The notes: generated from the letters alone by a model not told the origin. DNA of 64,000 bases from a virus (IMGVR_UViG_3300014204_000129:1-64000), one strand, 5' to 3'; positions 12,412-50,776 are shown, numbered from the stretch's first letter. Numbers and translations: made by a program.

Positions 12412-12709
12412 GTCCTCGAAGCTTCGGAAGCGAGAAGCTTTTGGCTCGCAACCTCCCCCCACGTTTTCACACCAATTTTCACTATAGTGTTTAGGGCAAA
12501 TATTAGGATAGACATTATATATACATTTATATATAATTAGATATAGTTGTATAATATTATGTATATATATTATTATATGTTGCTAAGCACTTGGTATACA
12601 CATGTTGAGCACCATAGATATGTCGTTATAAATACATAGCCAATATACATAAGCATCACACTCACCTATGTGTCACACACGTGCCTGTCGTTGCCTAAGT
12701 CTGTCGGTA

Positions 12710-12759
12710 TGTCGTTATAAACCCATAGTATAATATTATACTATGGGTTAATACCGACA
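12710..12759. repeat. palindromic site A: 18-bp inverted arms around a 14-bp self-complementary core
   Basis: TGTCGTTATAAACCCATA-GTATAATATTATAC-TATGGGTTAATACCGACA; an extra half-site at 12621-12638. Confidence 0.9.
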
Positions 12760-12900
12760 CTTTCAAACGACACCCTCTGCCACAAATATCCCAAATCTAC
12801 ACACAGCACTGTATAAACCCACCACATGCACGCTCATTCTAACCACTACCATGCACTAATATAACCATACTTAGCATTACTAACAAAAATATCACCCTAA

Positions 12901-12985
12901 TTGCGGGACAAAATAAGCCCTTGCGGGACAAAAGCGGGACAAACTTCGTGTCCCCGGGACAAACTCATCCACGTATGCGGGACAA
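12901..12985 (+). repeat. five iteron-like CGGGACAA repeats
   Basis: TTGCGGGACAAAA at 12901 and 12921, GCGGGACAAA at 12934, CGGGACAAA at 12955, TGCGGGACAA at 12976. Confidence 0.9.
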
Positions 12986-13007
12986 GCCATACTCTACTAA
13001 ACTGTAC

Positions 13008-13036
13008 TTGACAACAGTCACAGTGTGCACTATACT
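13008..13036 (+). promoter_or_regulatory. near-consensus sigma70 promoter
   Basis: TTGACA-17 bp-TATACT, followed by a GGAG SD and ATG at 13056. Confidence 0.8.
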
Positions 13037-13055
13037 GGGCTCTGGAGAATGCCAT

Positions 13056-13433
13056 ATGCAAGATACGCAAGAAGTGATCCGTATGATAGGTTTGTGTGGG
13101 TTCTGGATAGTCAAACCATATAAATCTACCCTAGAGTTTCGTCACACAGACATCACCCTCTTACAGTCTCTCAAGAATAACATAGGCACTGGCAGCCTGC
13201 ACAACCACCACAACCACTATCGCTACAAAATAACCAGCCTAGTCACTCAACTACAAATAATTTCTGAAATTTCAAACACAGATTTAAACCTCGCTAGAAC
13301 TCTATTTGAAGAACTCTTGACCAACCGCCTGGACATCGAAACACGCGAGTTAATTGGCCAATATCACACGCAGATAGTAGAAACAGCAGAGAATTGTGGG
13401 TTCATTGTTGAGGAAACTTTGTTAGAGCGATAG
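13056..13433 (+). CDS. degenerate LAGLIDADG-fold-like protein (start revised from 12921)
   Basis: EFRHTDITLLQSLKNNIGTGSL...YRYKITS resembles the LAGLIDADG beta/alpha core; no intact LAGLIDADG helix. Confidence 0.45.
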   Translation: MQDTQEVIRMIGLCGFWIVKPYKSTLEFRHTDITLLQSLKNNIGTGSLHNHHNHYRYKITSLVTQLQIISEISNTDLNLARTLFEELLTNRLDIETRELIGQYHTQIVETAENCGFIVEETLLER

Positions 13434-14413
13434 TTAGATAGGGATGGTATTTAGTGTTAGAAACCATTTCACAAATAAAACACTCACTTTCATATATTTA
13501 CTAAGGCTAAACTCTTACAACTTTCAGCATTACATATTATTGGTGTTATCCCCCGCCGAGTATCATCCCTGTCAGAATATTGTCAAAGATATACTTGACC
13601 TTATCCCGCCTACTGGCTGCCTTGCAGGACGCTAGCATCGGCTCCGCTGCTTTGCAGGACCGTGGCGCCGATTTGCGCGCTGGCGCCCGCTGTGGTAGGG
13701 TAGGGCACGGGTCGGACCATTGCGGGCGCGCCGTCGCATCTTTCGCAACATTCTATGGGGAGTGTAACTTTGAAGATAACCAGAGCTCACAATACCTTGC
13801 TCATTCTGCAAGCATCAGATCTTGACAGCGTACCAAATGTCAAGGTTATTAGTGAGGGACCAAAGGCCCCGGAAATTACACACACACTATTCCTTGCCCA
13901 TAGTGGCAGGATGTACAATCTGAAGCTAGATTTGTGGGAAGATATCCGCATGGCTTGTGGGCGGATATCTTGCTTCTCACATACCCCGCAGTCTATGCTA
14001 CTTATCCCAGAAGGTTTGACTAACCTACCAAAGAACTATGAACAATATACGCTGAGGTTCGCTGGCAAGGTTATTGCTTACCTTTACTGGCCACACACAT
14101 TGGGTGCAGTTAAGAGATTTGGTTACAAAGACGTTGTGATAGACAATCCTACCTTTGGTGACCGAACAAACGTGGTTGTGGAAAGTGTGCCGGAGTACTG
14201 GAAGGAAGTTATGATGGCACAGGTTACTGGCATCACAGAAGCTATGGCAAGGCAATTGTTGGGCATAGCTGAGTGGAAAGAGAATATAGTAAGTGAGTTT
14301 CAGAATATAGACTAATAAGAATCAGTATAATAATAGTTCATGTATCAGGGTAGCAATACTCTGAGGATGAATGTCGTGCTAAGTTGGGGCAGAGTAACAT
14401 CTGCCCCAGTTTC

Positions 14414-14459
14414 TATTGTGGATTAACCAGAGTAAAGATACTGTGGTTAGCACACAATA
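14414..14459 (+). promoter_or_regulatory. SD-proximal stem-loop H1
   Basis: TATTGTG..TTAACCA-G-AGTA-aaga-TACT-G-TGGTTAG..CACAATA, then AGGAG; ATG at 14471. Confidence 0.7.
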
Positions 14460-15552
14460 AGGAGAGAATCATGAAGGGTCATGTGTGGCTACATAGGAAG
14501 TTTCAGAACTCTCCAGGAGTGTGGATGGTAAAGTTGCCAGGAGACATTGCCCGACCTGTTGGGAAGGAAGATGAGCAGGGGGTAAGTGAAGAGATCTTAA
14601 TTGCACGAGCAGAAGTTTCTCGTGCACGTGAGGAGTATGTGAATCTCATCTGTGACATGCTCAGAGAGAAGTATGACAACGCTGTCATAACTGTACACGA
14701 CAAGTATGTGACAGCAGAAGTGCGTGGAAAGGTTGTGGCTAAGAAGGCTCTGAGGGTATAACGTCATGCAGACAGCCAAGTGTGGGTGCGTTGTGGATGT
14801 AAGTAAGAACTGGATAGAAAAGCACTGCAAAGTGCTAGAGGATGCTTTAAGGTTATCTAGCACAGGCAAGAACTTTAACCCTGATCCTGACTCGTTCATG
14901 AAGAATTACCAGATTGCTCAGGAGCACATTATTGCAGTGAAAAAAGAGGTAGGATTACTGCAATGAAGTGTGCAAGGCATTAATAAGGAGAGGTAGTAAT
15001 GAAGAAGTGGATGATTGTGCTAGCACTAACTGGCATATTCGTTCTCCGGGACATGCCAAACAAGTTGGAGAGTGTCTGGATGAAGACGTTTGTGACTAAG
15101 TATGGAGAAGTGATACCAGGACATGCAGACTGGTATCAGTTTGACTATTAGTTAGTGATTGACAAAGCTCATTAGTATATAATATATACTGTGAGCTTTG
15201 ATGAGACTAAGAGGAGTGTGCTGTGGAACTAAAGTGGGCAGAGATGGGCTGGTGGTATGGCAGCAACGAATTCGATAAGAAGTTGCTGGGGGAGGCTGGT
15301 AACTCAAGTTATCGGGTGGAAGATCAGTGCCAGGCAATGAGGACGTCTGACTTCGTGCTCATAACGTCAGAGCACAAGATGACCATAATCTCCGCAGACA
15401 CTATCGTGCGGGGATTTGGTGAGGATAAGGATGGCAAGAGTTTGAGAGAGCTAATGAAGGAGGAAGTTATCTATAACTACGCTCTTCGCTGTTAATGCAA
15501 TAATGGTTAATGAGGGAGCTATACTTTGGCTCCCTCATTAAGATTAGGGCAC

Positions 15553-15596
15553 TTTTGCTATTTACCAGAGTCATAAGATTGTGGTAAGCAGCAAAG
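15553..15596 (+). promoter_or_regulatory. SD-proximal stem-loop H2
   Basis: TTTTGCT..TTACCA-G-AGTC-ataa-GATT-G-TGGTAA..AGCAAAG. Confidence 0.7.
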
Positions 15597-15608
15597 GGGT
15601 GACTAACT

Positions 15609-16028
15609 GTGAACAAAGAGTATCTAAACTGGTCACTAGAAGCCTGTGATTGGTTATATAAGCAGTATAATATAACCAATTATAGGTCAACGGTACTTGA
15701 CAAGAATGTCAAGACTTGTTGGTATGAGTACAACAGTGGCCTGCACCAGATAACTATTGGTCAGCATTACACAGCTAAGTTGTCAACAGATGGATATAGA
15801 GAGTACGATGAAGTTGAATGGGTATGGGATAATGTAGATAGTGGCTTCGATGATCGTGATAATTGGCAGTTTATGCAAGTGTGGAAAGTGGTGTTGCACG
15901 AGTTCGCTCACGTGTTGTGGTCAGATATTTATTGGGATAGTGGTGAGGACGTACATGGCAGTAAGTATCAATCTCTGCTTAGAGAGTTGATAGAGACTTA
16001 CCCTTGGCATGTATTTCTCCGACCATAA
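15609..16028 (+). CDS. SprT-like HExxH metallopeptidase
   Basis: VLHEFAH with a downstream HG. Confidence 0.55.
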   Translation: MNKEYLNWSLEACDWLYKQYNITNYRSTVLDKNVKTCWYEYNSGLHQITIGQHYTAKLSTDGYREYDEVEWVWDNVDSGFDDRDNWQFMQVWKVVLHEFAHVLWSDIYWDSGEDVHGSKYQSLLRELIETYPWHVFLRP

Positions 16029-17203
16029 TGCATGTTATGGTCTAGGGCACTAATAAGGAGAGAAACTGTGGGTACGTGTCCGATTTGTGGAAAGATTCAT
16101 CGGGAGTATCCTGAGGAGTGCTTGCGGGCCGCAGAACTTGCCTGTAAGAAGTTGTGCAAGGGTGTGACTCATCATGATGACTGCATGTTGGAGGACATGC
16201 AGGAATACGTTAGTTGTGGTAGGTCTGTTGAAGAGTATTTAGATCCAGAAGATGCCTTCGAGGAAACTCCCGATGAAGTATATGCGCGACAATACTGGGA
16301 GGACATGGATAGAGAGTTCTACGAAGAGCTAGATAACGCCGACGAACCTCTCGACTGGGTTGATGACTTTGATCGTCGTTCGATAGAAGATCTTGATGGG
16401 CCTATATTCGATGGTCAGGAGTACTAATATGGAAGATCCCGCGGACAGAGTTGATATCAAGGAAGAGTTGGAGAAGTTATCCGAAGAAGAACTAGTGCAG
16501 GAGTATACATTCCTGCTATCTTTGGAGGAATAACATGCGGGATTATATCATGCTCAGTAGTGCACCTGTGGAAGAGGATTGTGCACAGGTTGGTAACGCC
16601 AACTATAGTGAGCAAGCACAGAGAGAGTGTAGAGAACTAATAAGGATGATGGAGGAGATTCATCCTGAGCAGCCTAAGATGTTCTTTGGCTACTACAAGA
16701 TCAAAGGTTTCCCCCATGACTTCGGTACATATTATGAGGTCGTGGCTATGTATGATGATGAGAATGAGGAAAGTATAGACTGGGCGTTCGATGCAGAGAG
16801 TCTTATCCCAGAACATTGGGATGAGCTTGCAAAGAAGAATCTACGTGGATAAGTGGGCAGCGTGGAAGAGGCAAGTGAAACACTATCTCATAAGATACTG
16901 GAGGTATAATAAGGGGATAAACAGTCAAAGGCTTCTAGCCCTATATAACTACGGTTATACAAGCAAGGAAGCTGCGCGTAAAATAGCCCACCAGGAGGTA
17001 TACTGTGCCTAATGTCAAGCGCTTGCAGAACCGTGAGGGAGTTAGACGATACGAAGTTAGTAACTGTAAGAGTCGTGAGCGCGCAGTCAGGGCCGTTGCA
17101 CAGATGTATCGTTATGATAAACATTGTTGGGCGTACTACACCGTGGAAGTTGATAGTGGGTTCAGAGTAGACGTAGTGAAGAATAAGAACCCACTACCAG
17201 ACA

Positions 17204-17270
17204 CTTTGTTGTAGGTTTACACGCAGGGCCTAAACATCGGTTTAGACCCTGGTGTTAGTCTATAACAAAG
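17204..17270 (+). promoter_or_regulatory. SD-proximal stem-loop H3
   Basis: CTTTGTTGTAGG...CAGGGCCTAAAC-atcg-GTTTAGACCCTG...TCTATAACAAAG, then GAGAG. Confidence 0.75.
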
Positions 17271-18076
17271 GAGAGACACGATGTACGAAGTAGTGAGCGG
17301 CCACGAAGCAGGACATCTGTACCACGACTACGTCTTCAGGTGCAAGAATGAGGAGGAAGCAAGAGAGTGCATAAAGGCCCTTGATGAGTATGCTAATAGG
17401 CAACAAACTCAGAACTGGGTTTGGGGTCCACAAATGTGGAAGAAGGCAGACACTTGTGTACCTATTCATTGGAATGGGTACCAAGAAGTAGATGCTCCCT
17501 GGTGGAGTGGTACCCTGAATATTGTGTCTTGCGAGAAGTGTGTCTACCACGGATGTGCAGGGAGATTGTATGCCCCGATAACCGACGGCAACAGAATGTG
17601 TGCTACTTTCAAGAGTGTCAGTATCAAGGAGAGCAAGGTGAGCACGAAGTTGGATGACGCAATAAAGGCGCGTGTAGAGATGTGTGCTGAGTGTCACAAG
17701 CTCATTAGTTGTGACCTCATACAGGACTCAGCGAAACTGTGGGCAAAGATGATGTACTCACAGTTTGAGAATGAGATGACCGAGCATTCACTATACCTGC
17801 ACGTATATGGTGCAATCTTGCAGCGCCGTGATACTGTGCAGGTCGTGTATGCTGCGCACTATGACTCAGTAGATGTTGTGGATGTGATTGTCAAGAGAGA
17901 TCATAGTGTCCCGTTTGAGGAGGATAGAGAAGCAGCAAGGAAGAAGGCTATGGATCGTATGAAGGGACAGCTTGTGCAGGATAGTTCTCAGGGCTGTCAC
18001 AAGTCTGTTGTTATAGCTGCCTGGATAAGGTGCTATAATGAGATGGATGATGTTTGGGAGGGCAGTGTTCTCACCC

Positions 18077-18137
18077 GTTAAGTCGTGAGCTAGGCCCCAC
18101 CAGCAGGAATGTTGGTGGGGTTTGCTCAGGGCATAAC
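18077..18137 (+). promoter_or_regulatory. SD-proximal stem-loop H4
   Basis: TGAGC-t-AGGCCCCACCAGCA-ggaa-TGTTGGTGGGGTTT-GCTCA. Confidence 0.75.
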
Positions 18138-18964
18138 AAAAAGGAGAGAAATCGTGCTGGCGAAGTGTGGATGTATGATAAGGGAGAGAGAAGTTGCTGC
18201 CCAGAACTAGAAAGATTGGAGAGAAAGTGTAGGGAGATAGCAAGGAAGCAGGGTAGATCATATCCTACCATCGGTAAGTACTTGGCGAGAATAGAGATAC
18301 ATAAGAATCTTGCACAGGGAGAGGGACAATGACACTCTATCGTGCAGAGTTCTACACTCGGAACGATGAGAAGGTTGGTGAGGCACAATTCTTGGCCAGC
18401 AACCAGAGCCAGGTAAGTGCCCAAGTGCAGGCTAGCATTAATGACCTACACGATCTTGGCATCACTGATCTGTTCTGCGTGGAAATCAGCATCATCTAAG
18501 GAGAAACGTGGTGTTCAAGCCAGTTTGGCAGACATCTGGTGAGACATATATTGCTAGTAAGGAGGAACTAGCGGGTATGTCAGAGAGAGATAAGCTTGAG
18601 TATGAACTGTTCTTTGCTCCGGCCAGACCGGCAACACTGAGGCAGGAACTTCACCTGTATGCACAACAGGAAACTGGTGTGCAAGAACCAAAGGTAAGTA
18701 TCTTGCCCGCACAGCGCCGACCTAACAGGTTGACAATGTAAGGTGAAGATAAGATGATTGGCAGAGTTGTTGGGCTGTGTGATGTGCGTGGCTATGATAG
18801 CTACGTTGGGGTTGTCATAAAGGAACTAACTGATTATCCTGGATTCTTCATTGTTGAGTACACCAACAGTGAGGAACAAACTGTGCCCTTGGTGGTATCA
18901 AGGGATGATGTAGTAAGATATCAGGAGGAAGGCTTTCCAATACAATTCTACCCCATAGAGTGAC

Positions 18965-19015
18965 CTAACACACAGCCAGCAAGGTACAATGAGGTATCTT
19001 GTTGGCTGTAGTTAG
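18965..19015 (+). promoter_or_regulatory. SD-proximal stem-loop H5
   Basis: CTAAC..ACAGCCAGCAAGGTAC-aatgag-GTATCTTGTTGGCTGT.GTTAG. Confidence 0.75.
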
Positions 19016-20495
19016 AGCATTAAGGAGGGGTATATGGAAGTAGAGGTCTGGACAAGATCTGGGGAAGTATCGGTGTTCCATAACGTAGATAAGCTGTACT
19101 ATGCTAACTTTGACTATCCATCAGAAAGTGTACTAGTGCTGCACTCTAATATACATGATAAGGAGGCTCGATACCCAGCAAGAAGGATCTCTGGTATAAC
19201 TGCCACTGTGGAAGATCGGGTGGCTTCCTTCTTCACGTTTGGTGGGGTCGATCACGTTGTGAGGTAAGCAACCATGCACTACTTTATCGTGCGCTATCGC
19301 AACGGAAATCTAGCAGAGATACATGAAGATTATGGGCTTAAGGAGGATATTTACAACAAGTACCTATATGATCCTTGTGTGCCTTCTAGGACATACTCGG
19401 TATTTGGCCCATACAGATCTGCGGAACTAAGAGATATCGCAGAACAGGAGTATCGTGATGAAACCTTGGCGGGTAACTTGTGAGAACTGCCCAGAGCTAG
19501 GAGAATGTGACGGCATATCAAAGCCTGTTTCTTATCTCAGTGAGGAGGATGCAAAGAAAGATAAGCAGTGTCCGATGCAGGAAGTGCGGCAGGATAACTG
19601 GCCATGCTTGAAGTGCTAATAGTAATAGGATGGATAGTTCTGTCAAGCACTTTGGGTATACTAGTAGATAAACTACGAGGTAGATAATGACCATCATTTT
19701 GGACTATGAAACCATCACTGAAGTCATGGAAGTGGTGGCACATGCCGCAGTCATCATACTAGCAATCTCCTGGATAATCGCAAGTCTAACACCGGAGAAG
19801 TAAGATGTGCTGGACAGTAAGTTGTGAGGGATGTCCTAGTGTGCCCTCAAACTATCCTGGATGTCCAAATGCCACTGTGCCCTCTCGTGACTTCGTCAGT
19901 TATTTGACGAGAGAGGATGCGGAGAAGGCTAAGGTCTGCACATTGCAGGAGGTATATGAAGAGAAAGAGAGTTGTGAGGAGCTGTACATTAGGGAGCTAA
20001 TGAGGAGACTGTAACGTGGCAGAACTAGACTACGTGTACCTTAATGGACTAAATGTTCCTTGCTACCGAGTGTTTGGTATCAAGATGAGAGTCTTTGTTA
20101 GTCCAAAGACAGTTGCACGGGAACTGTTCTTAAGGATTAGGCGCAATACACAGCCTGATACTCCAGAAACAGTTCAAGTTAAGTTAACATCTCTACCGTC
20201 CAGTTTCACAGTGATGTACTACGGACCGAAGACCGAAGAGGAGATTCTAAAGCTAGCATCTGACCTTGAAAAGGAGCTTAATAATGGGGTACAAGAGATC
20301 AATGCAAGCTGTCCATTCGGCGGAGAGTGTTGCTGCAAATAATCCTGAGGATACCGTTGTGGTGTTCAAGGGAGAGGACAATAAGTACCATATTAGGCGC
20401 TTTAATGAGGAGCGCGGAGTAGATACGTTCGTGGAGAAGAGAAGGGGTAATATTCACAGTATCATTAGGCCAGAGGCATAAGTAGAACCTACAAG

Positions 20496-20556
20496 TTAGT
20501 TATACCTTTCGTCAGTAGTCAGGGAAACTTGACTACTGATATAAGGGCGTAACTAA
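20496..20556 (+). promoter_or_regulatory. SD-proximal stem-loop H6
   Basis: TTAGTTATACCT..GTCAGTAGTCAGG-gaaa-CTTGACTACTGAT..AGGGCGTAACTAA. Confidence 0.75.
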
Positions 20557-21791
20557 GGAGAAAGATTGTGGACAAGCATGTGGAGAAGCTTTACATGGAC
20601 AGCTACAAGAAGAGTATCGACAATACCATGGCGGGCATTAATAAGGAGAGTGAGAAGAGTCTCCTTCTTAAAGAAGTAGCAGCGTCATTCCTTTTCTGTA
20701 TTCGTAAGTTACTTAGGGAGGAAGAAACAGATCCCTGGACTAAGGGAAAGATTTCCGGTGTGCTCTCCTGTCGTGAGTTTCTCCCCAATGATGTAAATGC
20801 TGTATTGTGGGAGATGCAGAAGATCTATGATGAGGTTCTTCTGCGAGGCATGGATATAAGGAGTAGCAGACATGCTACTTAGTGTAGAGGTCTTTAGCAT
20901 GATACTCTGGACGGCAGTAGCTCTCACCATTATCGGGAAGGTAGCTAAGGATAAGATAGTGGTGAGTATTGGAAGAATATTGTGGGGAGTTGCCATTGGT
21001 GCGCTGCTCAGTATACTGCGGTTATCTCTCTAGGAGAAGTACACATGAATGTTAGGGTACGATGGATGTGGGGTGGTTGGGAAACCCTGCATAACATTGC
21101 AGAGGTACACCATAACTATGATAATGGCACGGGTATGCCTACACATCGAGTAGCATTTGTTACCAAGGAACATACTAGCTTTACCTATCGGTGTGAAGAG
21201 ATACGTGAGATGGAGATAACTGAAGAGAGTGAAGTACTCTGTGGATACTGCGGGCACACACTGTCTAGAGAAGTGCAGACTAATGGTGCTCCGATGATGT
21301 ATTGCTGGAAGTGTGGAAACTGGCAAGCATGTTGACACTCATTGTTCTCACATTGATGCTCATTATGATCCTTATAAAGCTAGTAAGTACACTACTGGGG
21401 GGATAACATGAAGAAGTTGCTGACAGTTTTGAGAGAAGCGGTTGTCTCTCATAACTTTCACAAGGCTGTGGAACGGGACTTCCCTAATCATACCACGAGA
21501 CTACCAACTGCTAAGGAGTTGGCAGAGATCTATCAGTACTCACCAGAAGAACAGGTAGAAGGTATGACTCCATATGATCTGCGAGATGTCATACTATTCG
21601 TTCTTACCCTTGTAGATAATAGTGGTAAGCTTAGCTTGGACACACCCGATTGTGAGCATGCAATGAGATCGGTGGGTTTGTAAGAGGATGTATAATAGTG
21701 CGCTGATCTTGTTTTTGTGCTTATATCCTATTGCGCTTGTGGTGGGCCTCGCAATAGGATATCTAATAGTGGAGAATCTAATTGTGAGACG

Positions 21792-21846
21792 TTTGTAGGC
21801 TGAGCGTCTGCCCATAAGCAATTGTGGGCAGACATGAGCCTATAAA
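21792..21846 (+). promoter_or_regulatory. SD-proximal stem-loop H7
   Basis: TTTGTAGGCT..GTCTGCCCATAA-gcaa-TTGTGGGCAGAC..AGCCTATAAA. Confidence 0.75.
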
Positions 21847-23565: not shown

Positions 23566-23766
23566 GTGATGAAGAATGTGAAGGTTGAGGCTAAGGGTAA
23601 CAATATTGTGCTGACCATTGATACTACTAAGAATTTTGGGCGGAGTAAGAGTTCAGGTGCTAATATCATTGTTGCTAGTAGTGGTGGGAATCAGGCAGTG
23701 ATGGTAGGAGATAGGGAGTTTAAGCTTGGTGTGAATATGTTTAGGGAGCCTGAGCCCGGAGAGTAG
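23566..23766 (+). CDS. small conserved beta-strand protein
   Basis: MKNVxxExxGNxxxLTID..GxSxS..IIVASSGGN pattern, recognised from memory as a recurrent small hypothetical family. Confidence 0.55.
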   Translation: MMKNVKVEAKGNNIVLTIDTTKNFGRSKSSGANIIVASSGGNQAVMVGDREFKLGVNMFREPEPGE

Positions 23767-23822
23767 TTAGTAGTTAATGGAGAGGGTAGGAACCTTCCTA
23801 CCCTCTGATTAGTGACTAACTA
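23764..23822 (+). promoter_or_regulatory. SD-proximal stem-loop H8
   Basis: TAGTTAGT..TAAT..AGAGGGTAGGA-acct-TCCTACCCTCT.ATTA..ACTAACTA. Confidence 0.75.
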
Positions 23823-26800: not shown

Positions 26801-26827
26801 GGAAGGAATGGAAAGCTAAGCACCATC

Positions 26828-38077: not shown

Positions 38078-38089
38078 GAGAAATATGGT

Positions 38090-40245: not shown

Positions 40246-40417
40246 GCACTATAGTTATTCTTCTAGTGGGTTCTATTCTTAGAGTTCTGGCAATGGGTTT
40301 GCTTATAATGTGGGGAAGTAACATCCTTGGTGCTTCCTTCGATTGGTGGAGCTGTATTGCGTTGGGGTTCATTCTAGATACTATTATCTATCTAGAGAAG
40401 GATAAGAAGAATATTCC

Positions 40418-41323: not shown

Positions 41324-41337
41324 AAAAGGAGTAACAA

Positions 41338-41958
41338 ATGGTAGATGAAAAGCGTCTAGAAGATTATTTTAACCCGACAGCACCACCCCCTCAGCCCTTT
41401 GATGGTAGGGTGGATAGTATGGAACTAATCCAGCAGAAGAAGTATACTAGTAAAGAAACCCCGGATGACCAGCTAACTCCAGAAGATTTTGAGGATGTGG
41501 TTCATATTATCTGGACAGCCTTGAAGGAAGATCAGAGTGGGCGTCAGAAGTGGATTCCTGCTAAGACCAACAAGAATTCTAAGTGGCAGTATTGGTTGAA
41601 GTGCTGGAAGGACTTGGGTATTGAGCCTAATCAGATTGTTGGTATTGCGGCGCATTTTGAGCAGCATGAAGAGATCAAGGTAGGAAATAGCAGCAGGCCC
41701 TTCAAGGATATGTTGATTCCTGTATCTCTTATTACAGCAGAGGAAGCTACTAGTGATGAGGGTGTGGTTACCTATCTGTCACAGATCTTTAGTGATAGTA
41801 ATACTATGAGTTGGTCCGATTATGTGGGTAAAGTAATCGGCACAGATGCCTCGAAGAATTCTAACCTGCTCTCTCAGTTGACCAATAAGAGCGTTCTTGC
41901 TCAGGTCGAAGGGGTGAGTATCAATGGGGCTGATATCAGTTTCACGCCCCCGTTCTAA
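41338..41958 (+). CDS. putative single-stranded DNA-binding protein
   Basis: C-terminal ...PPF tail; first gene of the nuclease/annealase cluster. Confidence 0.4.
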   Translation: MVDEKRLEDYFNPTAPPPQPFDGRVDSMELIQQKKYTSKETPDDQLTPEDFEDVVHIIWTALKEDQSGRQKWIPAKTNKNSKWQYWLKCWKDLGIEPNQIVGIAAHFEQHEEIKVGNSSRPFKDMLIPVSLITAEEATSDEGVVTYLSQIFSDSNTMSWSDYVGKVIGTDASKNSNLLSQLTNKSVLAQVEGVSINGADISFTPPF

Positions 41959-42645
41959 TTGGAACTTATTGTTGACATACACGAGCCTAAAGCTATAGAC
42001 CCATTGTTAGTTGCTAAACTGGGAGAGGGTGTGGTTAGACGCCCTCTCCCAACTGGTGATTATACATTCATGGGCAAAGAGGGCTGTGTAGTCATTGAAC
42101 GTAAGGCCGTGAATGATCTCTATGGCTCATTCATGAAAGGAAGATTACAGGATCAATTACGAAGATGCCTATCCATGTCATCCCAAGCTTTCCTTCTTAT
42201 AGAAGGGTCACTAAAGGAATCTCATGGGTTTCTTGTTGCAGGTAATGGCAAGAGGATGAAGACGCCTTACACAGCACTATCTAATTTTCTAGTTAGTGCC
42301 CAGGCTGAGGGGATTAATATACTACTCAGCACTTCACTTGAAAACACTGCCAGTGTAATAGCTGGATTATATAATTACTTTCAGAAAGAAACACACAAGT
42401 CTATGGCAGATAGTGGAACTAGAAGCAAGGTGTGTAAGACACTACTAGATCAGCAGGTGTTGTTTCTTACCGGGCTACCTGGTATTGGGGAACAGCTGGC
42501 TAAGGATATATTAAGTGTGTACTTTAGTCCGGCACTGGCCATACAAGGTAACCTTGAGGGTGTAAAAGGTGTTGGGCCAAAGAAGAGGGAAGTGGCTATT
42601 AATGTTCTATATGGAATTGATAAAGGGGGTGTAAGTGACCAATAG
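41959..42645 (+). CDS. ERCC4/XPF-family nuclease with HhH motifs
   Basis: VDxxE, GDY, IERKxxxD, LLIEG, LPGIG, VKGVG. Confidence 0.9.
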   Translation: MELIVDIHEPKAIDPLLVAKLGEGVVRRPLPTGDYTFMGKEGCVVIERKAVNDLYGSFMKGRLQDQLRRCLSMSSQAFLLIEGSLKESHGFLVAGNGKRMKTPYTALSNFLVSAQAEGINILLSTSLENTASVIAGLYNYFQKETHKSMADSGTRSKVCKTLLDQQVLFLTGLPGIGEQLAKDILSVYFSPALAIQGNLEGVKGVGPKKREVAINVLYGIDKGGVSDQ

Positions 42646-42662
42646 CTTACAAGTGATATAAT

Positions 42663-43436
42663 ATGGAGATACATCAGTCTGCTGTTAAAGATTTCATGAT
42701 GTGCGGCAAGAAGTTTGAGTATACATATATTAATAAGGTACCACGGACTCTGCCAGAAGCGTTGCTAGTTGGTTCTGCATTCCATTATGCAATGACAGAA
42801 CACTTCCTGCATGGCTATAGCCTCGCTGATACGCAAGCATTGTTTGAGATTGAGATTATGACCCTCGCGCACCAGCGCTCTGATCCTAGATTTGTAAATG
42901 GGTCTGTAGCTGTATGGGAGCGCGGGCCAGAGGAAGCTGTGGGGTATGGTAAAGTATTGCTGGAAGAGTATTGGAATACAGCATTGCCTCTACTCCATGT
43001 TATGGAAGTAGCAAAGTCCTTGAAGAGGAATATACCGAACACTGATATAACAATTGCTGGTGAGCTTGACTTTATTGATGCCAGTGGCAAGATTGTAGAC
43101 TGGAAGGTAAAGGAGCGTGTACCATATAAGACCGAGATTCAAGATGATCTACAGCCAACATTTTATAGCTTCCTTGTTGGTGGTCCAATCACCTTTGAGT
43201 TTCATTATATACTGAAGCAAAAGACACCAAAGGTACGTATTGCAAGAACGACTCGCTCGGCCACTGCTATTCGTTGGATGACCGATGAGATGCTGCCAAG
43301 ATTTGCACGATCAGTGGAGACTGGCTTATACTTGGCAAATCCTACTGGGTGGTGGTGTAGCCCTAAGTGGTGCTCATTCTACAAGGAATGTAGAGGAGAG
43401 CCAAACCCAGAGCCAGAAGTAATAGAACTAGACTAA
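42663..43436 (+). CDS. PD-(D/E)XK (RecB/Cas4-like) exonuclease
   Basis: N-terminal C, GSAFH, GxLD, IVDWK, QxxxY, C-terminal C...C.....C. Confidence 0.85.
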   Translation: MEIHQSAVKDFMMCGKKFEYTYINKVPRTLPEALLVGSAFHYAMTEHFLHGYSLADTQALFEIEIMTLAHQRSDPRFVNGSVAVWERGPEEAVGYGKVLLEEYWNTALPLLHVMEVAKSLKRNIPNTDITIAGELDFIDASGKIVDWKVKERVPYKTEIQDDLQPTFYSFLVGGPITFEFHYILKQKTPKVRIARTTRSATAIRWMTDEMLPRFARSVETGLYLANPTGWWCSPKWCSFYKECRGEPNPEPEVIELD

Positions 43437-43508
43437 GATCCCTGTAATACTCTTGCTCGAACAGAGCCCAATACTATTATAGGAGAAAAAATATAGAAGG
43501 ATAAATAT

Positions 43509-44270
43509 ATGGAAGGTGAGTTAGTACCCGTCGCTAGTGACGAATATTATAAGATGATGGAAAGAGAGTGGGCCCTAGATATACGCGAACAACGTAAGAT
43601 CGTTCGCAGTAGTGGCTCACAGTTAGTTAGTGACGCTGGAATTAAGCGTGCAGTAGAAATGAGTCGGTCCTATAATGTGCCCCTTGGTGCTATTTGTTTC
43701 ATACCAGCAGGTAAGGAAATGATTCCTTATGTGACTGCTGAGGGAATCAAGTGGGCATATAGGTTAGATACACGTGGGGCTGCTGGTATCATTACGACAT
43801 TCATTCAGTTCCCCACGCCGGAGGTTCCTGTAGCGATTTGCAGGGCAGAGGTCAAGTTCCGTGATGGAAGTTGCTATGTAGGACACGGTCTTGCCAGCCC
43901 GGATCAGAAGGCTAACAAAGACATGTCATTGCCTGATATAGCTATGAAGGCTGAAACAAAGAGTGTTAGACGAGCTATTCAGAACGCTATTGCATTCCCA
44001 TTCTCTGTATACGAAGATGCAATTGAGGTTGCAGAGCGTGGCTGGCAGGCAATGAATAAGTACGAAGAGAAGTTAAATACAGTTGATGGTACTGCAACAG
44101 AGCTGGTAGAGAATATGCCTGCTGTATTTGCAGTGGCAATGAATGAACTAAAGATACCCTATCTTGAAACAGTAGAGATATTAAAGAAGTTACTAGGAGT
44201 AGAGGAACCCCTTAGTTATGGTGATCCTGCGGGTGCTTTAGAGCAACTAAAGAAATACGTGGAGAAGTAG
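43509..44270 (+). CDS. single-strand annealing protein (RecT/Red-beta/Rad52-like)
   Basis: PYVTAEG, G-x-A, MKAETKSVRRA; adjacent to the exonuclease. Confidence 0.65.
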   Translation: MEGELVPVASDEYYKMMEREWALDIREQRKIVRSSGSQLVSDAGIKRAVEMSRSYNVPLGAICFIPAGKEMIPYVTAEGIKWAYRLDTRGAAGIITTFIQFPTPEVPVAICRAEVKFRDGSCYVGHGLASPDQKANKDMSLPDIAMKAETKSVRRAIQNAIAFPFSVYEDAIEVAERGWQAMNKYEEKLNTVDGTATELVENMPAVFAVAMNELKIPYLETVEILKKLLGVEEPLSYGDPAGALEQLKKYVEK

Positions 44271-47014
44271 TGTGGTAAAGAGAGCTGTTAGTGATATTAT
44301 TATGAAGCCAGAGATACATGATGTAGTTACTATAGTTGATACAAGCGCCCCACCCGCCCCTATCCCAGTCCCGCTGGTAGATACTGAGTATAGGCTGTCT
44401 ATCGGGGACTTGGTAGAGCTTTCTATTGTTGGTGCAGAGTTTACCAATGCACAGGCAGTAGTAGTGTATTCTGCTAATAAGTTTATTGTAGCTAGAGGTA
44501 GGCATATAGGGGGAGTATACTTTATCCCCTATTCTGCTATAGCAATGTCAACTACAATTACAAATGAGATATATAATGAAGAGTTTCCTATGTATAGGGA
44601 TACTCTGTACACAGTTCGTCTGCAAAATGGCTTATCTAAGATGTTATTTGTTGATGCTATAGGCAGTGATTCTGTGCTTTGCCGATTGGGAGCTAAGCCA
44701 GTTATTATTCCCTTGAATAAGTTGGCCTATATAAAGCTATGAAGGCAATAGTTGATATGAGGGTAAGGGTCTGGGATTCTTACCCTCTTGCCTTTATACA
44801 GTTAAATAATGAAGAAGCAATATATGTGTATGTTGGTAATGAGAGGCTGCTGCAAGGAATATTAGATAAGTTAAATGAGAAGGGTGTTATATCCTATAAT
44901 ATAATAAGGGATAATGACTGATAATATTGACCTGAAGATAACAGTAGCAACTACTATTGAGGACTTCTCTGTTATTAACTTACCAATGGTAGTGGTTAAG
45001 GTTAAGTATCCACTGACTCCGTTTGGCAAGAGAATGCTTGTTTGGTGTAAGAAGCACTTGCCTTGCTATAGGATAATAGAAGAGACCTCTGGTGAGCTAC
45101 TAGAAGAGAGGAACTTTATAAAGGAGTTCATTCGTGAGAATGATGTATCATATACAGAGGATACTATTACTAATGCTGAGCTTGCTGCTTTGTTCCGTAG
45201 TGGAAGTTTCAGTCTACGATGAGTGAATACACTGATACTGAGAAGAGAATATTAGAGAAGTTGGTAGAATTCAATGGCATAATGACCTATGATGATATAA
45301 GGGAAGTTTTGTGCCGCGGCAATGGCTATATGGAACGAGAATTCATTATGCCTGCCGTAAGAGCACTGATTCAGCGTGGGATTATAGATAATATATATAA
45401 CACTGTGTCTGAAGAAGCACGAGTTGCTAAAGCCCTTCCTATAAGAAAGGCATATATAATGCTTCCAGATAGTTGGTATATAAAGTTATCTATTGCAACT
45501 AAAACACTAGAGTGGTATCTATAAATAAGGGGTGTCTATATGAGACGTACAAGTGTGTGGTATAATAGGCTTACTGCGGGTGAGCGGAGGGTCTTGTATC
45601 AGCTTGAGCGGGCTAATCAGGAGATTATTCCTGGTAGTTGCTTCCTACCAGAAGGCTACAGTGAATGCTCTTTCTGTAGTACACCGTGCTCTGGTGGGGG
45701 GCTGTGTCCACTTTGCTCCAATGAGCTGAGTAGGCTAATTAGTACAGCAGACATTGCTATTGATATTACGGGCCAGGGGTGGGACAACGAAGAAGCTGTT
45801 ACATATTATCTAGTAAGATTCCCAGACGGGCATGAAATGAAGCTATACTATCCTGACATATTCGACCACTATGACACTGAAGATGCATACGATCATGCGA
45901 AGTTGATTGCACGGGAGTATTGGCAAGGTAAGGAGAAGGTATTTACAGAGACTTGGCTATTCAAGGACAACTAATAGGGGGATAATTATGGCGCATACCC
46001 GTGTCACGCCACTTATGCTGATGCACTCAGCTGCTTATGACATTCGTAATGGTGTTCATTGGGAGATGCTAGAGTTAGAAAACAGGGGACGCAGAGATAT
46101 AGCACGTTATGTAAAAGATGCTCTTGATAAGGGCTATACAGCACTTGATATTGCGCTAGCATGTGCAGGTGCACCTATTCCTGATGATAAAGTGTGGGAA
46201 GACTGACCAACAGGAGGTAATATGAAACGCTATCTACTATTCGCAGGTTGGATCTACTATCCTTCAGGTGGCTGGAAGGATTTGGTTGAATCTTTCTCTA
46301 CTATTGAAGACGCACTAGATGCTGCCTTCACACATGGGGGTAGCCTTACGTGGTACCAGATCGTTGATACAAGCAGTGGCGCAATTGTAAGGGAAAGGGA
46401 GAATGTATCTTAGATGTATATTAATATAATTATCAACCCCTCTCCACCCTCTCTCCTAACCAGTATTGCTATTTACTGTACTGAGGGCAAAGGGTGGACC
46501 TATGATCTAACCCAAGAGCGCTTTCGGCGCCCAGGAGAGTACTTTAGTAGCAGCGAGGAAGCTACAAAGGCCGCACTGAAGTATTTTATAGACAATTATG
46601 ATATTCTTATGGAGAGAAAGTCATAGCAGTAGTGTATAGGGGTATGATCAGGCAATTCTGTGAGATGATGATGCGCGAGGGCTACCACCCAACGGCAACT
46701 GTGAGCGTTGCAATGAGCCCACACATACTGTCGAGGAACAGTGCCCTCACTTACTGCCCAGCTTGTATGCAGTATACTGGGATAATCCACCAAGCACAAT
46801 CTATGTAGAGGACACAGCATCTCATAGATCTACTTGTACAAGGAGCAGCAAATATGAGTTGGCAAGTAGTGATAGAGTTCTATGGACTACACTTGGATAT
46901 TGAAGCACCCACTGCTGAAGTGGCAGAAGCCTTAGCACTAGAATCACCAGAGGTTCAAACACTAATTGATGCCCTTGGTGAACCCTTTGAAGTATATGTA
47001 AAGGAGATTATAGA

Positions 47015-47602
47015 ATGATTTTTAATGATGATGCCATGAAGAATATTTATCTTGGTTTTAAGACGCAGGCCAGGCTTCCTATAATGCCACAACCACAAGG
47101 ACATTACGCTGGTAATAAAACATTCTCCTTGCCAGATCGGGACACTACTCTGATGTACCCATACGCCATGCACTACCCTATACCATTACAAGAATCTTAT
47201 ACTATTATAGGTGACAGGGTAGTGTATAAAGCAGGTTCTATAGACAATTATGGTTGCTTCTGGAGTGATATTGCGTGTGATCCTAGTAGGGTGAAGTGGA
47301 AGTCCGCAGAGACTATGCTAGATAGCTTTGTAAGATATGATATTGTAATTAATAGATATTGGATAGAAAGGATCCAGAGTATTCGTGTCAAGGATATCGA
47401 GGATATGGCTATCAGTTTTGTTAATAAGTTGCCACTGATAGTACCTAAGGGCAGAATTGTTTCTGGTGAGTTTGTAGAGAAGGTAGCTAAGGATGAGTTC
47501 GCAATAGTTTGGAATAGGTGGCATAGTGGGCTGTACTCTTGGGATAATAATCCTTGGGTTTGGGTGTTTACGTTTAAGGCAAATAAGCGTGGACCCCACT
47601 GA
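47015..47602 (+). CDS. ASCH-like phage protein
   Basis: MIFN..M..I..GxKTQxR N-terminus; ERIQxI and C-terminal SWDxNPWVWV. Confidence 0.7.
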   Translation: MIFNDDAMKNIYLGFKTQARLPIMPQPQGHYAGNKTFSLPDRDTTLMYPYAMHYPIPLQESYTIIGDRVVYKAGSIDNYGCFWSDIACDPSRVKWKSAETMLDSFVRYDIVINRYWIERIQSIRVKDIEDMAISFVNKLPLIVPKGRIVSGEFVEKVAKDEFAIVWNRWHSGLYSWDNNPWVWVFTFKANKRGPH

Positions 47603-49641
47603 GTGTAATAAACAATTACGGTATGCTGATGATGATCTAATTATAGGTGAATTTCTAGAGTGGTACTTTAATAACTCTATTAGACCAGGGAGTGTTATTT
47701 GTAACTGTTGTGGGGCAGGGCTAGAAGTAGAGAGTATTAACAATATACTGGCAAGATACCATCACATAGACCTAACCAGGCTCTCCCTAGAAAAGAAAGC
47801 TATACTGGAGTCTTTACGTAGTGTATGAGCAGCCTAGCTCTGAGTGTAGAGTATGTAATGGTGCTGGCACTGTGGGCCGCTGGAGAAATAATGGCAAGTT
47901 TGTGCAACGGCGGTGCCCACACTGTAAAGGCTGTGGAAGATTATATTCATCTATGGCGCCTAGCACAGAGCCCGTGATATCTAGTAATGAGGAGGAACAT
48001 GTACACCACCAATCGACTCAATAATATACCATGTGGTTCTATATTTAGAGTACCTGATGGTAACACTCTGATGGTTAAGCAGGGATATGTTACTGCCACT
48101 AACTCCTGGTACTGTAAAGGTGTTGATGGTAAAGGAGACTATTTCTTCTCAGTAGAGAGTAATTATATGGTAGTTGTGCTAGATGTTAAGAAGGCTGTGG
48201 AGTTTGTAGAAGAGACTTGTGCAGCCTTTACATCTTCCATAGACCCCCTTGCGCTTTGGTATCGTATAGATAGCCTTGTAAAGGAGCTAAACTATGATAG
48301 ATTCCACACTGTTTAGGGTGATCGCTCGAACATCAGAGCTTGTATATATAGATTTAATTGGGATGGATAGGGTCGTAAGGTATCCACAGCCACTATATGA
48401 TTCTCTCATCAAGGATAAGCTCTATATAGGTAGATTTGATAGTGATACGCAGTTTATTACCGATATCAAAAGTGCCCCTGAGCCAGACCCCAATGATGGG
48501 ATGACTATGATGTATCCAAGTACTAATATCGAAGTAGGGAACACCTGGGAGTGCTCATTACTATATAATATTCTAAAGAGTCTACACAATAGATGTGGGT
48601 TTACAGAGTGGTGGATGGACATTGACCCTGTAATCCAAGAAGAGATCATTAATGATCTTATATATATTATACGTTAATATAATATTATTATTAGTAATCA
48701 TTATTATTAGAGGGGTGCTTAGTTTATGTATAAAGTGACATTGCACACAGGGGTGATTACCCCACAGAAGTTAGGAAAGTATACCTGGTTATCATTTAGT
48801 ACTGAGGCCCCATTTATTGGTCAGGGCATGGTTATTGGACCAGATGATGCGGAAATTACCATAGAGGAGTGGGGGTACAGAGACGGAGAATTATGGGGTA
48901 ACGGTAGGAACGAAAGCTCTAAGCTTTGCTCTACATTAGAAGAATATAATAATGAGATACAATACTTTGTAGATCGTGGTTGGAAGATAGATTACGAATT
49001 TAATATAAGGTAGAGATTTTATATACTATAATGGTTGAATAAAGGTTGAATCAACTATAATAGTTGGGGGGATAAATGTATTTAGTAACTAAGGTTGACA
49101 GATGCTTCTATTGCTCGGCTGTGCACCACGTATTTTGTAGTTATAGACTTTCCTGTACGCATCCTAAGCATCCACTGTATTCAGCTATTGATAGGAGCAC
49201 CCCTGGCCTTGTAGAGTCTGACCTACAGAGAGATTGTCCACTGGTGAATATAGGGGAGGCCATTGCTAAGGCTTTTAATCAGCCTAAGATTATGGCTGAG
49301 GCATATAATGATATTATAAGGGGGTTGGCTATCAATGAACATTGAACTTGTTTCTTATAGTAACGTAGCATCCTTCAAGCTGCACCAAGCAGGATTAATC
49401 TTTTGTCTAGCACGTATAAATAGTTTTTGTAATGAGTGTGAACTAACAGCCCAGGATATGGGCTACCCACATGTACACTTTAAGCTTATAGAATCTGTTG
49501 ATGATCAGACATATCTTGTAGAAAGTACTCAGCCAACAGAGATATCAGTTAGGATAGTAATGAGTATTATTGAAGAGACGGTTAAGAGACTTGAGTATGC
49601 TAGAGATATGAAGCGAAAGCTTGGGCTGTTTAGATGTTAAG

Positions 49642-49675
49642 AAGGGGTAGGGGGGAGTAATCCCCCCTATCTTAT
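49642..49675. terminator. hairpin between convergent transcription blocks
   Basis: GTAGGGGGGA-gtaa-TCCCCCCTAT at the strand switch. Confidence 0.7.
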
Positions 49676-50343
49676 CTTACCGGAGGAGGTACTGGATTAG
49701 AGTGCATAGATAGAGGTCGTGGCCTGTCGCTGTTCCATTGTCGAAGTACTAATCGTATATTGATAGTTGTGGATTGGCTGTAGTCAAGCTGCAACTCTGG
49801 GGCATTATAGAACTCTTGGTAGGACTGCCCAGAGAGTCCTGTGCCCCCACCAACTGCATGAGAACTAAATCCATAGCAACCAACATCACCCACTGTACCT
49901 TGTGGCCCAGTATTACCCGTGCTACTAGTGTAGAATACTGTGGGCCTTTCCCACCAGTAGTCATAATCATTCCACCTATGAATAACTGGCGGTCTCGGAT
50001 CTGTAAATCCTCTAATGTACCGAACAGAAGGAACAAACTCCACGCTAATTACTCCACTTAGATAATCCTCACTATTTATCCCCGCCTCAGCAGCCTCACT
50101 AGTTCCATGAGCATAGAATGTAAACCTTCCATCATCCTCAGCAGGTCTCTCTATCCGTATACTTCCATAACTATTAATTCTCCAAGTACCCACTTCCTGC
50201 CCATCAATTGTGACCTTGGCGTCACAAGCTTCTGCACGCTGATTACCAAGGATTAGGGCATATTTCTGCCTATGAGCGAGTTCTACATACCCGCTACGCT
50301 CTTTACCACCTTCAACACGAACACTAAATCCATTGAGTAACAT
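49672..50343 (-). CDS. conserved hypothetical beta-sandwich protein
   Basis: Y.L.L.N....CDAxVxIDG...IERP....RFTF...GVISVEF; has its own consensus promoter. Confidence 0.6.
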   Translation of the reverse strand: MLLNGFSVRVEGGKERSGYVELAHRQKYALILGNQRAEACDAKVTIDGQEVGTWRINSYGSIRIERPAEDDGRFTFYAHGTSEAAEAGINSEDYLSGVISVEFVPSVRYIRGFTDPRPPVIHRWNDYDYWWERPTVFYTSSTGNTGPQGTVGDVGCYGFSSHAVGGGTGLSGQSYQEFYNAPELQLDYSQSTTINIRLVLRQWNSDRPRPLSMHSNPVPPPVR

Positions 50344-50397
50344 TATATTCTCCTTGGGTGGCGAGATTAGATTTGACTGCCACCGTCAACACCTTAT

Positions 50398-50426
50398 ATT
50401 ATACCACTACTTCAGCGGTTTGTCAA
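50398..50426 (-). promoter_or_regulatory. perfect-consensus sigma70 promoter
   Basis: TTGACA-17 bp-TATAAT with TGG immediately before the -10. Confidence 0.85.
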
Positions 50427-50718
50427 GTTCCTTATAACCATGCAGGGTTTGTGCTGTGATTACCGTTGCAAACGCAATTGCAAACAGCTCTTCTAACCAG
50501 CCACGCCAGCTCACAGGCCCTACTACATACAACATACCCACTGCTAACATATATCCAAGGACAGCATACAGTACCGCTACCACAAAAGATGCGGTGCGCT
50601 TATCTGCGCTACTGAAGCGCTCGAACCATTTCACACGTTTTACCGTGTTATAGGCCAGTATGCCAGCCCCCGGACCACCGAACAACCATTTCAATGCCAA
50701 TTCCAATGTCATCTTCAT
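50407..50718 (-). CDS. putative holin (three hydrophobic segments, Met-Lys-Met start)
   Basis: Small membrane protein with a charged C-terminus, located in the lysis cluster. Confidence 0.55.
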   Translation of the reverse strand: MKMTLELALKWLFGGPGAGILAYNTVKRVKWFERFSSADKRTASFVVAVLYAVLGYMLAVGMLYVVGPVSWRGWLEELFAIAFATVITAQTLHGYKELDKPLK

Positions 50719-50725
50719 CTCCTAG

Positions 50726-50776
50726 TGTCGGTATTAATCCATAAGGGGTTAATATCTATATGGATTTATACCGACA
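50726..50776. repeat. palindromic site B, homologous to site A
   Basis: TGTCGGTATTAATCCATA-15 bp-TATGGATTTATACCGACA. Confidence 0.9.

Follow-up and report, generated by a model that had tools for sequence, protein, structure and literature searches.

The 64,000-nucleotide stretch analysed here (IMGVR_UViG_3300014204_000129:1-64000, referred to as the window) makes up the first 64,000 bases of an IMG/VR phage record that is linear, 111,443 bp long and an estimated 75% complete; the same phage is also represented by a contig of 121 kb. The record carries ten copies of an 18-19 bp box, TGTCGGTATWAAYCCATA(G), which fall into three clusters, all intergenic or at gene ends: site A and site B in the window, and cluster C further along the record. 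We assign a probability of roughly 0.4 to the reading that these boxes are cognate duplex-DNA sites of a phage DNA-binding protein, probably the zinc-finger protein P0001 whose gene ends in site B, placed at the borders of transcription units; we infer P0001 as the binder, the duplex form of the target, and the effect on gene expression.

The boxes stand well above background, as would be expected of the specific recognition sites that a reading of the sequence alone (the sequence-only reading) had taken the repeats to be. In a position weight matrix (PWM) scan of the whole record the ten copies score 25-30 bits and the next best match less than 15 bits; in the window the degenerate 18-mer has 5 exact matches, and 7 with up to 3 mismatches against an expectation of 0.74, a count that none of 100 shuffles reaches. 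The shuffles of the window and the PWM gap in the record together rule out a chance origin. The box positions TGTC ... ATA ... CATA are invariant. Four inverted (head-to-head) pairs account for 8 of the 10 boxes, and their AT-rich spacers of 14-16 bp place the box centres 32-34 bp apart; the other two are solo boxes, which are as well conserved as the paired ones (1-2 differences from the consensus). The spacers differ between sites, keeping only their AT-richness and, in three of four, the motif ATATTA. Homology between units ends at the arm ends: flanks are unconserved, and no duplications surround the units. All four pairs are predicted to fold into hairpins (-12.5 to -15.9 kcal/mol, z -5.6 to -6.6), every stem retaining 1-2 internal mismatches, and the flank of the solo box at 12621-12638 gives no fold (z 0.16). 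Within 60 bp of site A there are three further bare cores, TGTCGKT, although their density over the whole genome predicts about 0.01 in 150 bp. We dropped the idea that this core is avoided outside the clusters: the 6 copies observed compare with 25 expected from base composition, but with only 7-11 under di- to tetranucleotide models.

The sequence-only reading had described a two-site system, made of two homologous palindromes with a further half-site next to the first. Both palindromes, the solo box and the stretch TTAATACCGACACT common to sites A and B were all located as stated (Table 1); the claim of two sites is wrong, because three clusters are present, the third at record positions 105379-105519. 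Genes of the phage are encoded on the minus strand as far as about 12.4 kb; coding switches to the plus strand between 12.9 and 49.64 kb and returns to the minus strand from 49.67 to about 109.5 kb. Site A (boxes at 12621 and 12710/12742) occupies a 530-bp divergent gap, with the AT-rich tract to its left and five direct repeats and a strong promoter to its right. Both the tract and the repeats, which had been called iteron-like, are real, the repeat family being confined to this spot save for one inverted GCGGGACA copy in the macro-domain gene beside cluster C. The 14-bp spacer of palindrome A, GTATAATATTATAC, is palindromic in itself. The next plus-strand gene probably starts near 13055, over 290 nt away from the palindrome. 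A weak promoter-like sequence that reads leftwards, TTGAAA-17-TAGTAT (12766-12738, 9/12), overlaps part of site A. At site B (boxes at 50726/50759) one arm takes in the last codons and the TAA of the P0001 gene, and the other stops 2 nt short of the Shine-Dalgarno (SD) sequence (AGGAG-N-ATG) of the open reading frame (ORF) of a holin-like protein, P0002, both as previously noted. The two palindromes had been said to bracket the plus-strand block, which they do roughly, although site B lies 1.1 kb past the end of the block, with two minus-strand genes between. Cluster C comprises five boxes, a solo one standing between two inverted pairs whose spacers measure 16 nt, and fills a 165-bp gap with a 110-aa ORF on one side and the macro-domain gene 45 nt downstream. 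The stop codon of the 110-aa ORF falls 2 nt past the first arm of the cluster, and the pair C1 lies 45 nt from a start codon. The cluster sits on the border between a run of small early-type genes and a block of macro-domain, RNA-repair and replication genes. The 110-aa ORF was considered as a possible P0001 paralogue and rejected by inspection.

Comparison with relatives bears on site B. The gene order lysin (57% identical), P0001 homologue, small membrane protein (38% identical) is kept in two lineages, L026-L028/L033, whose homologue (P0005) is 34% identical to P0001, and L034, whose homologue is 66% identical to P0005 and 28% to P0001. At the same junction both L026 and L034 carry a homologous palindrome, TGTCCAAATAGACCCATAG, a 9-13 nt AT-rich spacer and TATGGGACTATTTAGACA, and then AGGAG, so that such a palindrome at the 3' end of P0001 homologues, which the sequence-only reading had named as a check on itself, does exist. 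The box of these lineages, TGTCCAAATAGACCCATA, shares with that of our phage the outer TGTC and the inner CCCATA(G) and differs in the middle, in both arms. The stop codon occupies box positions 17-19 in L026/L034 and 9-11 in this phage, in a different reading frame; the junction palindrome is thus no by-product of coding, and selection acts on the nucleic acid. Judging from these junctions, the gene-palindrome-holin order at site B is ancestral. Within this genome the compensatory CCC/GGG to TCC/GGA change reported earlier amounts to one compensated position against 7 uncompensated arm differences, and covariation becomes clearer only with the relatives: across six palindromes 4 pairs are altered on both sides and 89.8% of cells are paired. 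More distant members of the family have a palindrome of different sequence within about 100 nt after the gene (L025, L030, L031, L035), a weak inverted repeat only (L041) or none (L029). Altogether 6 of 8 family lineages carry an inverted repeat no more than about 100 nt past the gene, as compared to 22 of 195 genes (11%) in this genome, a difference that is indicative only, as the threshold was set post hoc. Across IMG/VR the degenerate 18-mer gave 13 single matches, about chance level by a rough estimate from the information content of the pattern, and no close relative with the motif; a search for the L026-type box gave one lone match, in a coding region. Relatives sought in IMG/VR by peptide patterns from P0001, the family alignment and the lysin were not found, nor were long contigs carrying P0001 family members, and three long contigs with the shared lysin (L042-L044) have no P0001 homologue. 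In L044, two small sigma-70-like/GerE genes stand directly upstream of that lysin (L044:4691-5478); none is detectable in the 111 kb of this phage.

P0001 belongs to a rare family, with six relatives among 1.8 billion representative proteins. It matches no Pfam or PHROG family and no sequence among solved structures; a Pfam scan of P0001 and all seven family members gave nothing up to E=5, tblastn against cultured phages gave no match, and a six-frame hidden Markov model (HMM) search of the record with the Rep-related families PF01446, PF23343, PF20199 and PF14319 gave no match at E<=10. The predicted model is a confident one (predicted local distance difference test, pLDDT, of 84): the zinc ribbon is followed by a middle domain of ferredoxin/RRM-like fold, and a disordered linker then leads to a further small domain of alpha/beta type. 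In the alignment of the seven members the four Cys are invariant and no His or Tyr is. The HUH motif is absent from the central strand, strands 97-100 and 104-110 reading CAIFP and LVWVTFT; an N-terminal HPH occurs in only 4 of 7 members, outside the sheet; and a catalytic Tyr (YxxK or similar) is not conserved, the helix at 127-137 being without Tyr in any member. Foldseek of the model against PDB returned nothing. An exhaustive aligner gave as top match the Rep protein ORF119 of SIRV1 (Z 6.7, root mean square deviation 3.2, 87 aligned residues), with PCV2 Rep, the origin-binding domain (OBD) of RepB, nanovirus M-Rep, the SV40 OBD (Z 3.7-4.0) and a RAYT protein (in the RAYT-REP hairpin complex 4er8, Z 3.7) scattered at Z 3.7-4.7 among unrelated ferredoxin-like folds; Z values below 8 are common for unrelated models. 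In BFVD the matches are microvirus replication initiators (E 5e-4 to 3e-2, template modelling (TM) score 0.3-0.39), and in the ESM Atlas they are Rep_1, Zn_Tnp_IS91 and REP_ORF2-G2P clusters, with 0.90 by features, a value reached by chance in 4-10% of shuffles, and a TM score of 0.48 by structure. The C-terminal domain folded alone has only generic ACT/ferredoxin-like matches (Z up to 4.1). P0001 is therefore a member of no Rep family; we call it a zinc-ribbon protein whose core is certainly non-catalytic and, as far as the predicted model goes, possibly Rep-derived. Of the Rep-like label given to it earlier, a weak likeness at the level of the fold survives, and a Rep HMM match or a conserved HUH or Tyr does not. 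For want of these features, nicking and HUH-type mobility, the latter an alternative raised by the sequence-only reading, are unlikely.

Recognition of the box as duplex DNA, over a hairpin acting through structure alone, is favoured by the combination of conserved arms with an unconserved spacer of constrained length, by full-strength solo boxes, by stacked cores and by the symmetric co-change of the arms. Because its gene has stayed linked in cis to the site over deep divergence, P0001 is the obvious candidate for the binder, and the location of the clusters at three block borders suggests control of transcriptional or translational flow. In the mechanism that we propose P0001, a nuclease-dead, Rep/IS91-like protein, would bind the boxes with one protomer per bipartite box, so that an inverted pair would hold two protomers, one on either side of an AT-rich centre that melts easily; occupancy would be raised further by solo boxes and bare TGTCGKT cores. 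The bound protein would serve as an operator or road-block that sets transcription (or, at site B, translation) past each border. At site A it would act on the early divergent control region, between the AT-rich promoter tract and the strong rightward promoter; at cluster C it would control entry into the middle block; and at site B the expression of the holin would depend on how much is made of the protein encoded immediately before it.

A number of observations weigh against this proposal. P0001 is linked to the boxes by adjacency alone, and no gene resembling P0001 lies close to site A or C; the fold matches on which its Rep/IS91 likeness is built are weak; and a ferredoxin/RRM-like fold is equally suited to RNA binding. 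Symmetric covariation is as compatible with a hairpin as with a dimer site, and a variation of 2 bp in the centre-to-centre distance is more than one would usually see with a rigid dimer. In every co-directional case (B, C2, L026, L034) the stop codon of the preceding gene is overlapped or touched by the first arm, and at B, L026 and L034 the last arm adjoins the SD, both of them hints of a role at the RNA level. Overlap with a promoter-like sequence occurs at site A only, where it is weak. Finally, the relatives are known only from contigs of 1.4-4 kb, and the comparison of junctions covers site B only.

Several of these points are what one would expect if the units acted as single-stranded hairpins, either as RNA stem-loops (in RNase III-type processing, in transcript-end stability, or in translational control of the holin by bound P0001) or as REPIN-like single-stranded DNA hairpins copied to three places by a once-active HUH protein. 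On this account, which we regard as possible but on balance unlikely, the good folds of all four pairs, the high proportion of paired cells with four doubly changed pairs, and the placement of the first arm at a stop codon and of the last arm at an SD would all find an explanation, as would the retention of internal mismatches in every stem, seen also in HUH-recognised hairpins. The Met-Lys-Met dual start (holin/antiholin) of lambda S is governed by an upstream stem-loop, and P0002 starts in the same manner behind palindrome B. The mixture of inverted doublets, singlets and a cluster resembles REPINs beside their RAYT gene (PMC3116915), and the RAYT-REP hairpin complex is among the fold matches of P0001. 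Yet REPIN singlets are expected to decay (PMC3116915), and here solo boxes are conserved as well as paired ones. The bare cores at site A are unable to pair, and conservation of the stem sequence with a variable loop is the reverse of what is found in most protein-RNA hairpin operators. In cluster C it is the sense (minus) strand that forms the poorer hairpins, with two mismatches each as opposed to one mismatch and one wobble in the antisense ones. Against the mobile form of the account there are only three loci, with no target duplications and no flank homology, and a position of site B that has stayed fixed over deep divergence, which argues against recent mobility; against its HUH form stands the lack of HUH and Tyr motifs in P0001.

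If the clusters were instead replication origins or initiator-loading sites, a non-nicking, Rep-derived P0001 would bind the boxes and help to melt the AT-rich centre, with A as the main origin and B as an ancestral one. Site A has much of the required appearance: six boxes in 150 bp, an AT-rich tract of about 75 bp and five separate iterons, at the minimum of the cumulative GC skew, between divergent blocks and upstream of the block that contains the helicase; the spacers are AT-rich and share ATATTA. The fold neighbours of P0001 include the origin-binding domains of Rep proteins and SV40 T antigen, and distant relatives have the family gene at 0.5 kb from DNA polymerase A. Rep genes with an origin of their own inside or beside them, such as P2 A and phiX174 A, are well known. 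We nevertheless consider an origin function unlikely, and the coupling of replication to lysis timing that the sequence-only reading proposed is speculative. GC skew follows the coding strand, and so gives no separate information on replication; B and C have no AT-rich flank; two lineages have the gene in a lysis cassette where the late block finishes, an unexpected position and moment for an initiator; its usual neighbours are Metallophos, lysin and holin genes and not replication genes; and it has neither catalytic motifs nor a linked helicase or primase partner. The spacer core ATATTAA is presumably similar to the nick regions of phiX174 and geminiviruses, a resemblance with no support from catalytic motifs, of which we made no use. 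Much less plausible is the suggestion that the palindromes are crossover sites at which a site-specific recombinase inverts the 38-kb A-B segment or rearranges the genome. It has in its favour that A and B share the same fine asymmetry, have opposite orientations in the genome and roughly bracket the plus-strand block. The asymmetry, however, tracks the local gene direction, the spacers in which crossover would occur differ between sites, the five boxes of cluster C are in mixed orientation, and inversion would break the conserved order at site B. The idea is unsupported because no serine or tyrosine recombinase (Resolvase or Phage_integrase domain) was found in the 111 kb, or 75% of the genome, by a search that gave matches in control genomes; we consider it very improbable.

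Some other roles were tried and rejected. The terminator scan picked out none of the palindromes as an intrinsic terminator, and they have no T run after them. As sigma-70 promoters the boxes were not called either, bar the weak leftward site at A. Promoters private to the phage were rejected because no polymerase or sigma factor was found to read them (no Sigma70_r2 match, and no T7-type RNA_pol match in a search made without a positive control); such units would also fire antisense. A composite of the preceding ideas, finally, would have a rare large-phage lineage domesticate a rolling-circle Rep/IS91-type protein without its nuclease and keep it in the lysis cassette, with an ancestral hairpin-capable site at the 3' end of the gene. 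At three places, namely the early divergent region or origin, the early/middle border and the holin start, the protein would read the imperfect palindromes when they are extruded or single-stranded, tying holin expression to the state of replication or transcription. We look upon this as a long shot.

Table 1. Features in and around sites A and B, in window coordinates.
Feature	Coordinates	Strand	Evidence or remark
AT-rich tract, about 90% A+T, with rightward sigma-70-like matches	12505..12580	.	promoter-like 12509-12537 (11/12) and 12526-12555
Solo 18-bp box TGTCGTTATAAATACATA, no inverted partner	12621..12638	+	PWM 25.2 bits
Two extra 7-bp cores, left of palindrome A	12686..12708	+	TGTCGTT at 12686, TGTCGGT at 12702
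Palindrome A: TGTCGTTATAAACCCATA, 14 nt, TATGGGTTAATACCGACA	12710..12759	.	single-stranded DNA fold -15.9 kcal/mol, z -6.6
Extra core, right of palindrome A (AACGACA on plus strand)	12766..12772	-	overlaps leftward promoter-like site
Five direct repeats of (G)CGGGACAA, a separate repeat family (GCGGGACAA x5)	12903..12986	+	upstream of the promoter at 13008..13036
Strong sigma-70-type promoter, TTGACA-17-TATACT, head of plus-strand block	13008..13036	+	promoter scan
Perfect sigma-70 promoter with extended -10, TTGACA-17-TG-TATAAT	50398..50426	-	inside last codons of holin-like gene
P0002, 103-aa small membrane protein, holin-like	50407..50718	-	38% identical to gene after palindrome in L034
Palindrome B: TGTCGGTATAAATCCATA, 15 nt, TATGGATTAATACCGACA (minus-strand reading 50776-50726)	50726..50776	.	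fold -14.0 kcal/mol, z -6.4
P0001, 250 aa, candidate box binder	50766..51518	-	N-terminal four-Cys zinc ribbon (C25, C41, C46, C49)
443-aa protein, glycoside-hydrolase-like lysin domain	51518..52849	-	57% identical to gene upstream of P0001 homologue in L034
Amidase_2 endolysin, head of lysis cassette	52849..53481	-	domain/profile match

In the lysis cassette the stop of the lysin gene and the start of the P0001 gene overlap by one base. The 443-aa lysin domain matches no Pfam family, and its relatives (P0011-P0061) are fused to SLT, Amidase_2 or SpoIID; it is a widespread, uncharacterised cell-wall hydrolase or binding module. P0002 begins Met-Lys-Met (window 50710-50718, minus strand), and its first ATG directly adjoins the SD. 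The promoter scan detected no promoter in or just after site B; the perfect promoter near the end of the P0002 gene reads into a 223-aa unannotated ORF (49672-50343), the final gene before a convergent terminator at 49650-49668. Elsewhere, family gene neighbours are Metallophos, holin and lysin genes and sometimes DNA polymerase A. The 0.5-kb gap to DNA polymerase A in distant relatives (L030:11260-11800, L031:4840-5357) looks coding, with a Cys-rich zinc-finger stretch and a weak winged-helix match, although no gene was called there.

As to the genome at large, the left block contains ribonucleotide reductase, and the plus-strand block a helicase and further DNA-metabolism genes. In order of transcription the long minus-strand block starts with small early-type genes and continues with the macro-domain gene, a CCA-adding enzyme, a Ro60-like protein and DNA polymerase A; then come terminase, a protease-capsid fusion and collagen-like fibres, and last a Metallophos phosphatase and the lysis cassette. 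The capsid is only 31% identical to that of the closest cultured relative, Microcystis phage Mae-JY22, and the lineage is accordingly poorly sampled; the DNA of site A has no detectable similarity to that of known phages. About 1.3 kb of the window, at 11100-12460, have a G+C content of 55% (genome about 41%) and no convincing ORF, with overlapping frames on both strands, and contain hairpins and a recurring linker, TTGACATAAC. Rfam and tRNA scans of the window gave no match, there or elsewhere, so this stretch may encode structured RNAs of a new kind. Between the fibre genes and the phosphatase a 618-aa ORF (window 58024-59880, local G+C 53%) has no PHROG match. The large terminase (L023:2711-5359, record 86711-89359) is 882 aa long, and an internal segment of it matches phrog_36001 and an anaerobic ribonucleotide reductase-like family; a 518-aa ORF beside a fibre gene (window 62368-63924) matches the same families, and the common segment may be an intein or a shared inserted domain.

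The regulatory DNA of uncultured large phages is almost unmapped, and the boxes offer a small, testable candidate regulon, with one 18-bp box in ten copies at three loci and one obvious candidate binder; the conserved junction between gene and site is a handle for in-vitro work independent of the host. If P0001 does bind the boxes, a Rep/IS91-like fold would have been reused, minus its nuclease, as a site-specific regulator, in a lysis cassette (lysin, regulator, site, holin) whose holin is gated by the product of the preceding gene. Should the units work as hairpins instead, phages would have in them an equivalent of REPIN or ESAS elements; and if the domesticated Rep protein of the composite account were real, a dead transposase or initiator would have given rise to a new kind of lysis clock.

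These results can be compared with a number of known systems. In bacteria, REPINs are short inverted doublets with predicted hairpins, dispersed in many extragenic copies and associated with an active Y1 HUH transposase, RAYT, which units flank (PMC3116915, PMC3337134). Like them, the phage elements consist of conserved boxes arranged mostly as inverted doublets around a less conserved spacer, with singlets and a higher-order cluster in addition, and there is a gene of weakly HUH-like predicted fold with a unit at its end. In contrast to them, the phage elements occupy three loci and not hundreds and are carried by a phage; P0001 matches no RAYT/Y1 transposase model, has no HUH/Tyr and is flanked by a unit on one side only; and singlets are no more decayed than doublets, with the gene-side unit keeping its position over about 70% protein divergence. 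The extended start-associated sequences (ESAS) of Cluster K mycobacteriophages are imperfect inverted repeats of 17 bp, in close association with a conserved start-associated sequence found where translation begins (PMC3203893). They share with our boxes the imperfect inverted repeats of 17-18 bp, the variable spacer and the presence at several genes per phage, as well as conservation by gene family among related phages, a location just upstream of starts and an unexplained function (PMC3203893). ESAS always occur with the 13-bp start-associated sequence at the ribosome-binding site, and at many genes, and their spacer is 4-13 bp long as against 14-16 bp here (PMC3203893). Of the phage sites only B abuts an SD, with no second start-linked motif, and A is far from a start codon.

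HUH Rep replicons (circo-, nano- and geminiviruses, pMV158 RepB, gene A of phiX174 and P2) have origin hairpins and iterons. Our system resembles them, to the extent that weak fold matches allow, in having a Rep-fold protein next to a cis-linked inverted repeat with an AT-rich centre, and extra direct boxes at site A; it differs in having no HUH or catalytic Tyr, a loop without an invariant nick sequence and 18-bp stems that are much longer than usual, in a double-stranded DNA phage whose genome measures about 150 kb and encodes a DNA polymerase. At the lambda Q-pR'/qut-S junction the gene of a zinc-binding regulator, its cis site and the holin follow each other, and S has the sdi stem-loop. 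A zinc-binding protein gene, a cis site and a holin-like gene with a Met-Lys-Met start behind a stem-loop are likewise found here, but no promoter was detected in or after B, P0001 has no detected similarity to Q, and the site recurs at two other loci. At HSV oriS, bound by UL9, and at the SV40 core origin inverted boxes flank an AT-rich spacer, a dedicated protein binds the origin, and there can be several origins per genome. Inverted boxes with an AT-rich spacer are common to these and to our phage, and the SV40 OBD is a weak fold neighbour of P0001; unlike in those systems, no helicase domain is fused or linked to P0001, and the AT-rich flank exists at site A only. By analogy, then, the architecture appears closest to REPIN/RAYT and ESAS, and the logic close to that of Rep/origin pairs and lambda Q-qut-S. 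What defines each of these systems is lacking in the phage: the copy number and catalytic motifs of REPIN/RAYT, the start-associated sequence of ESAS, the HUH/Tyr and profile matches of Rep, and the promoter of qut. The class in which we place the boxes is that of dispersed palindromic recognition sites with a cis-linked candidate binder gene.

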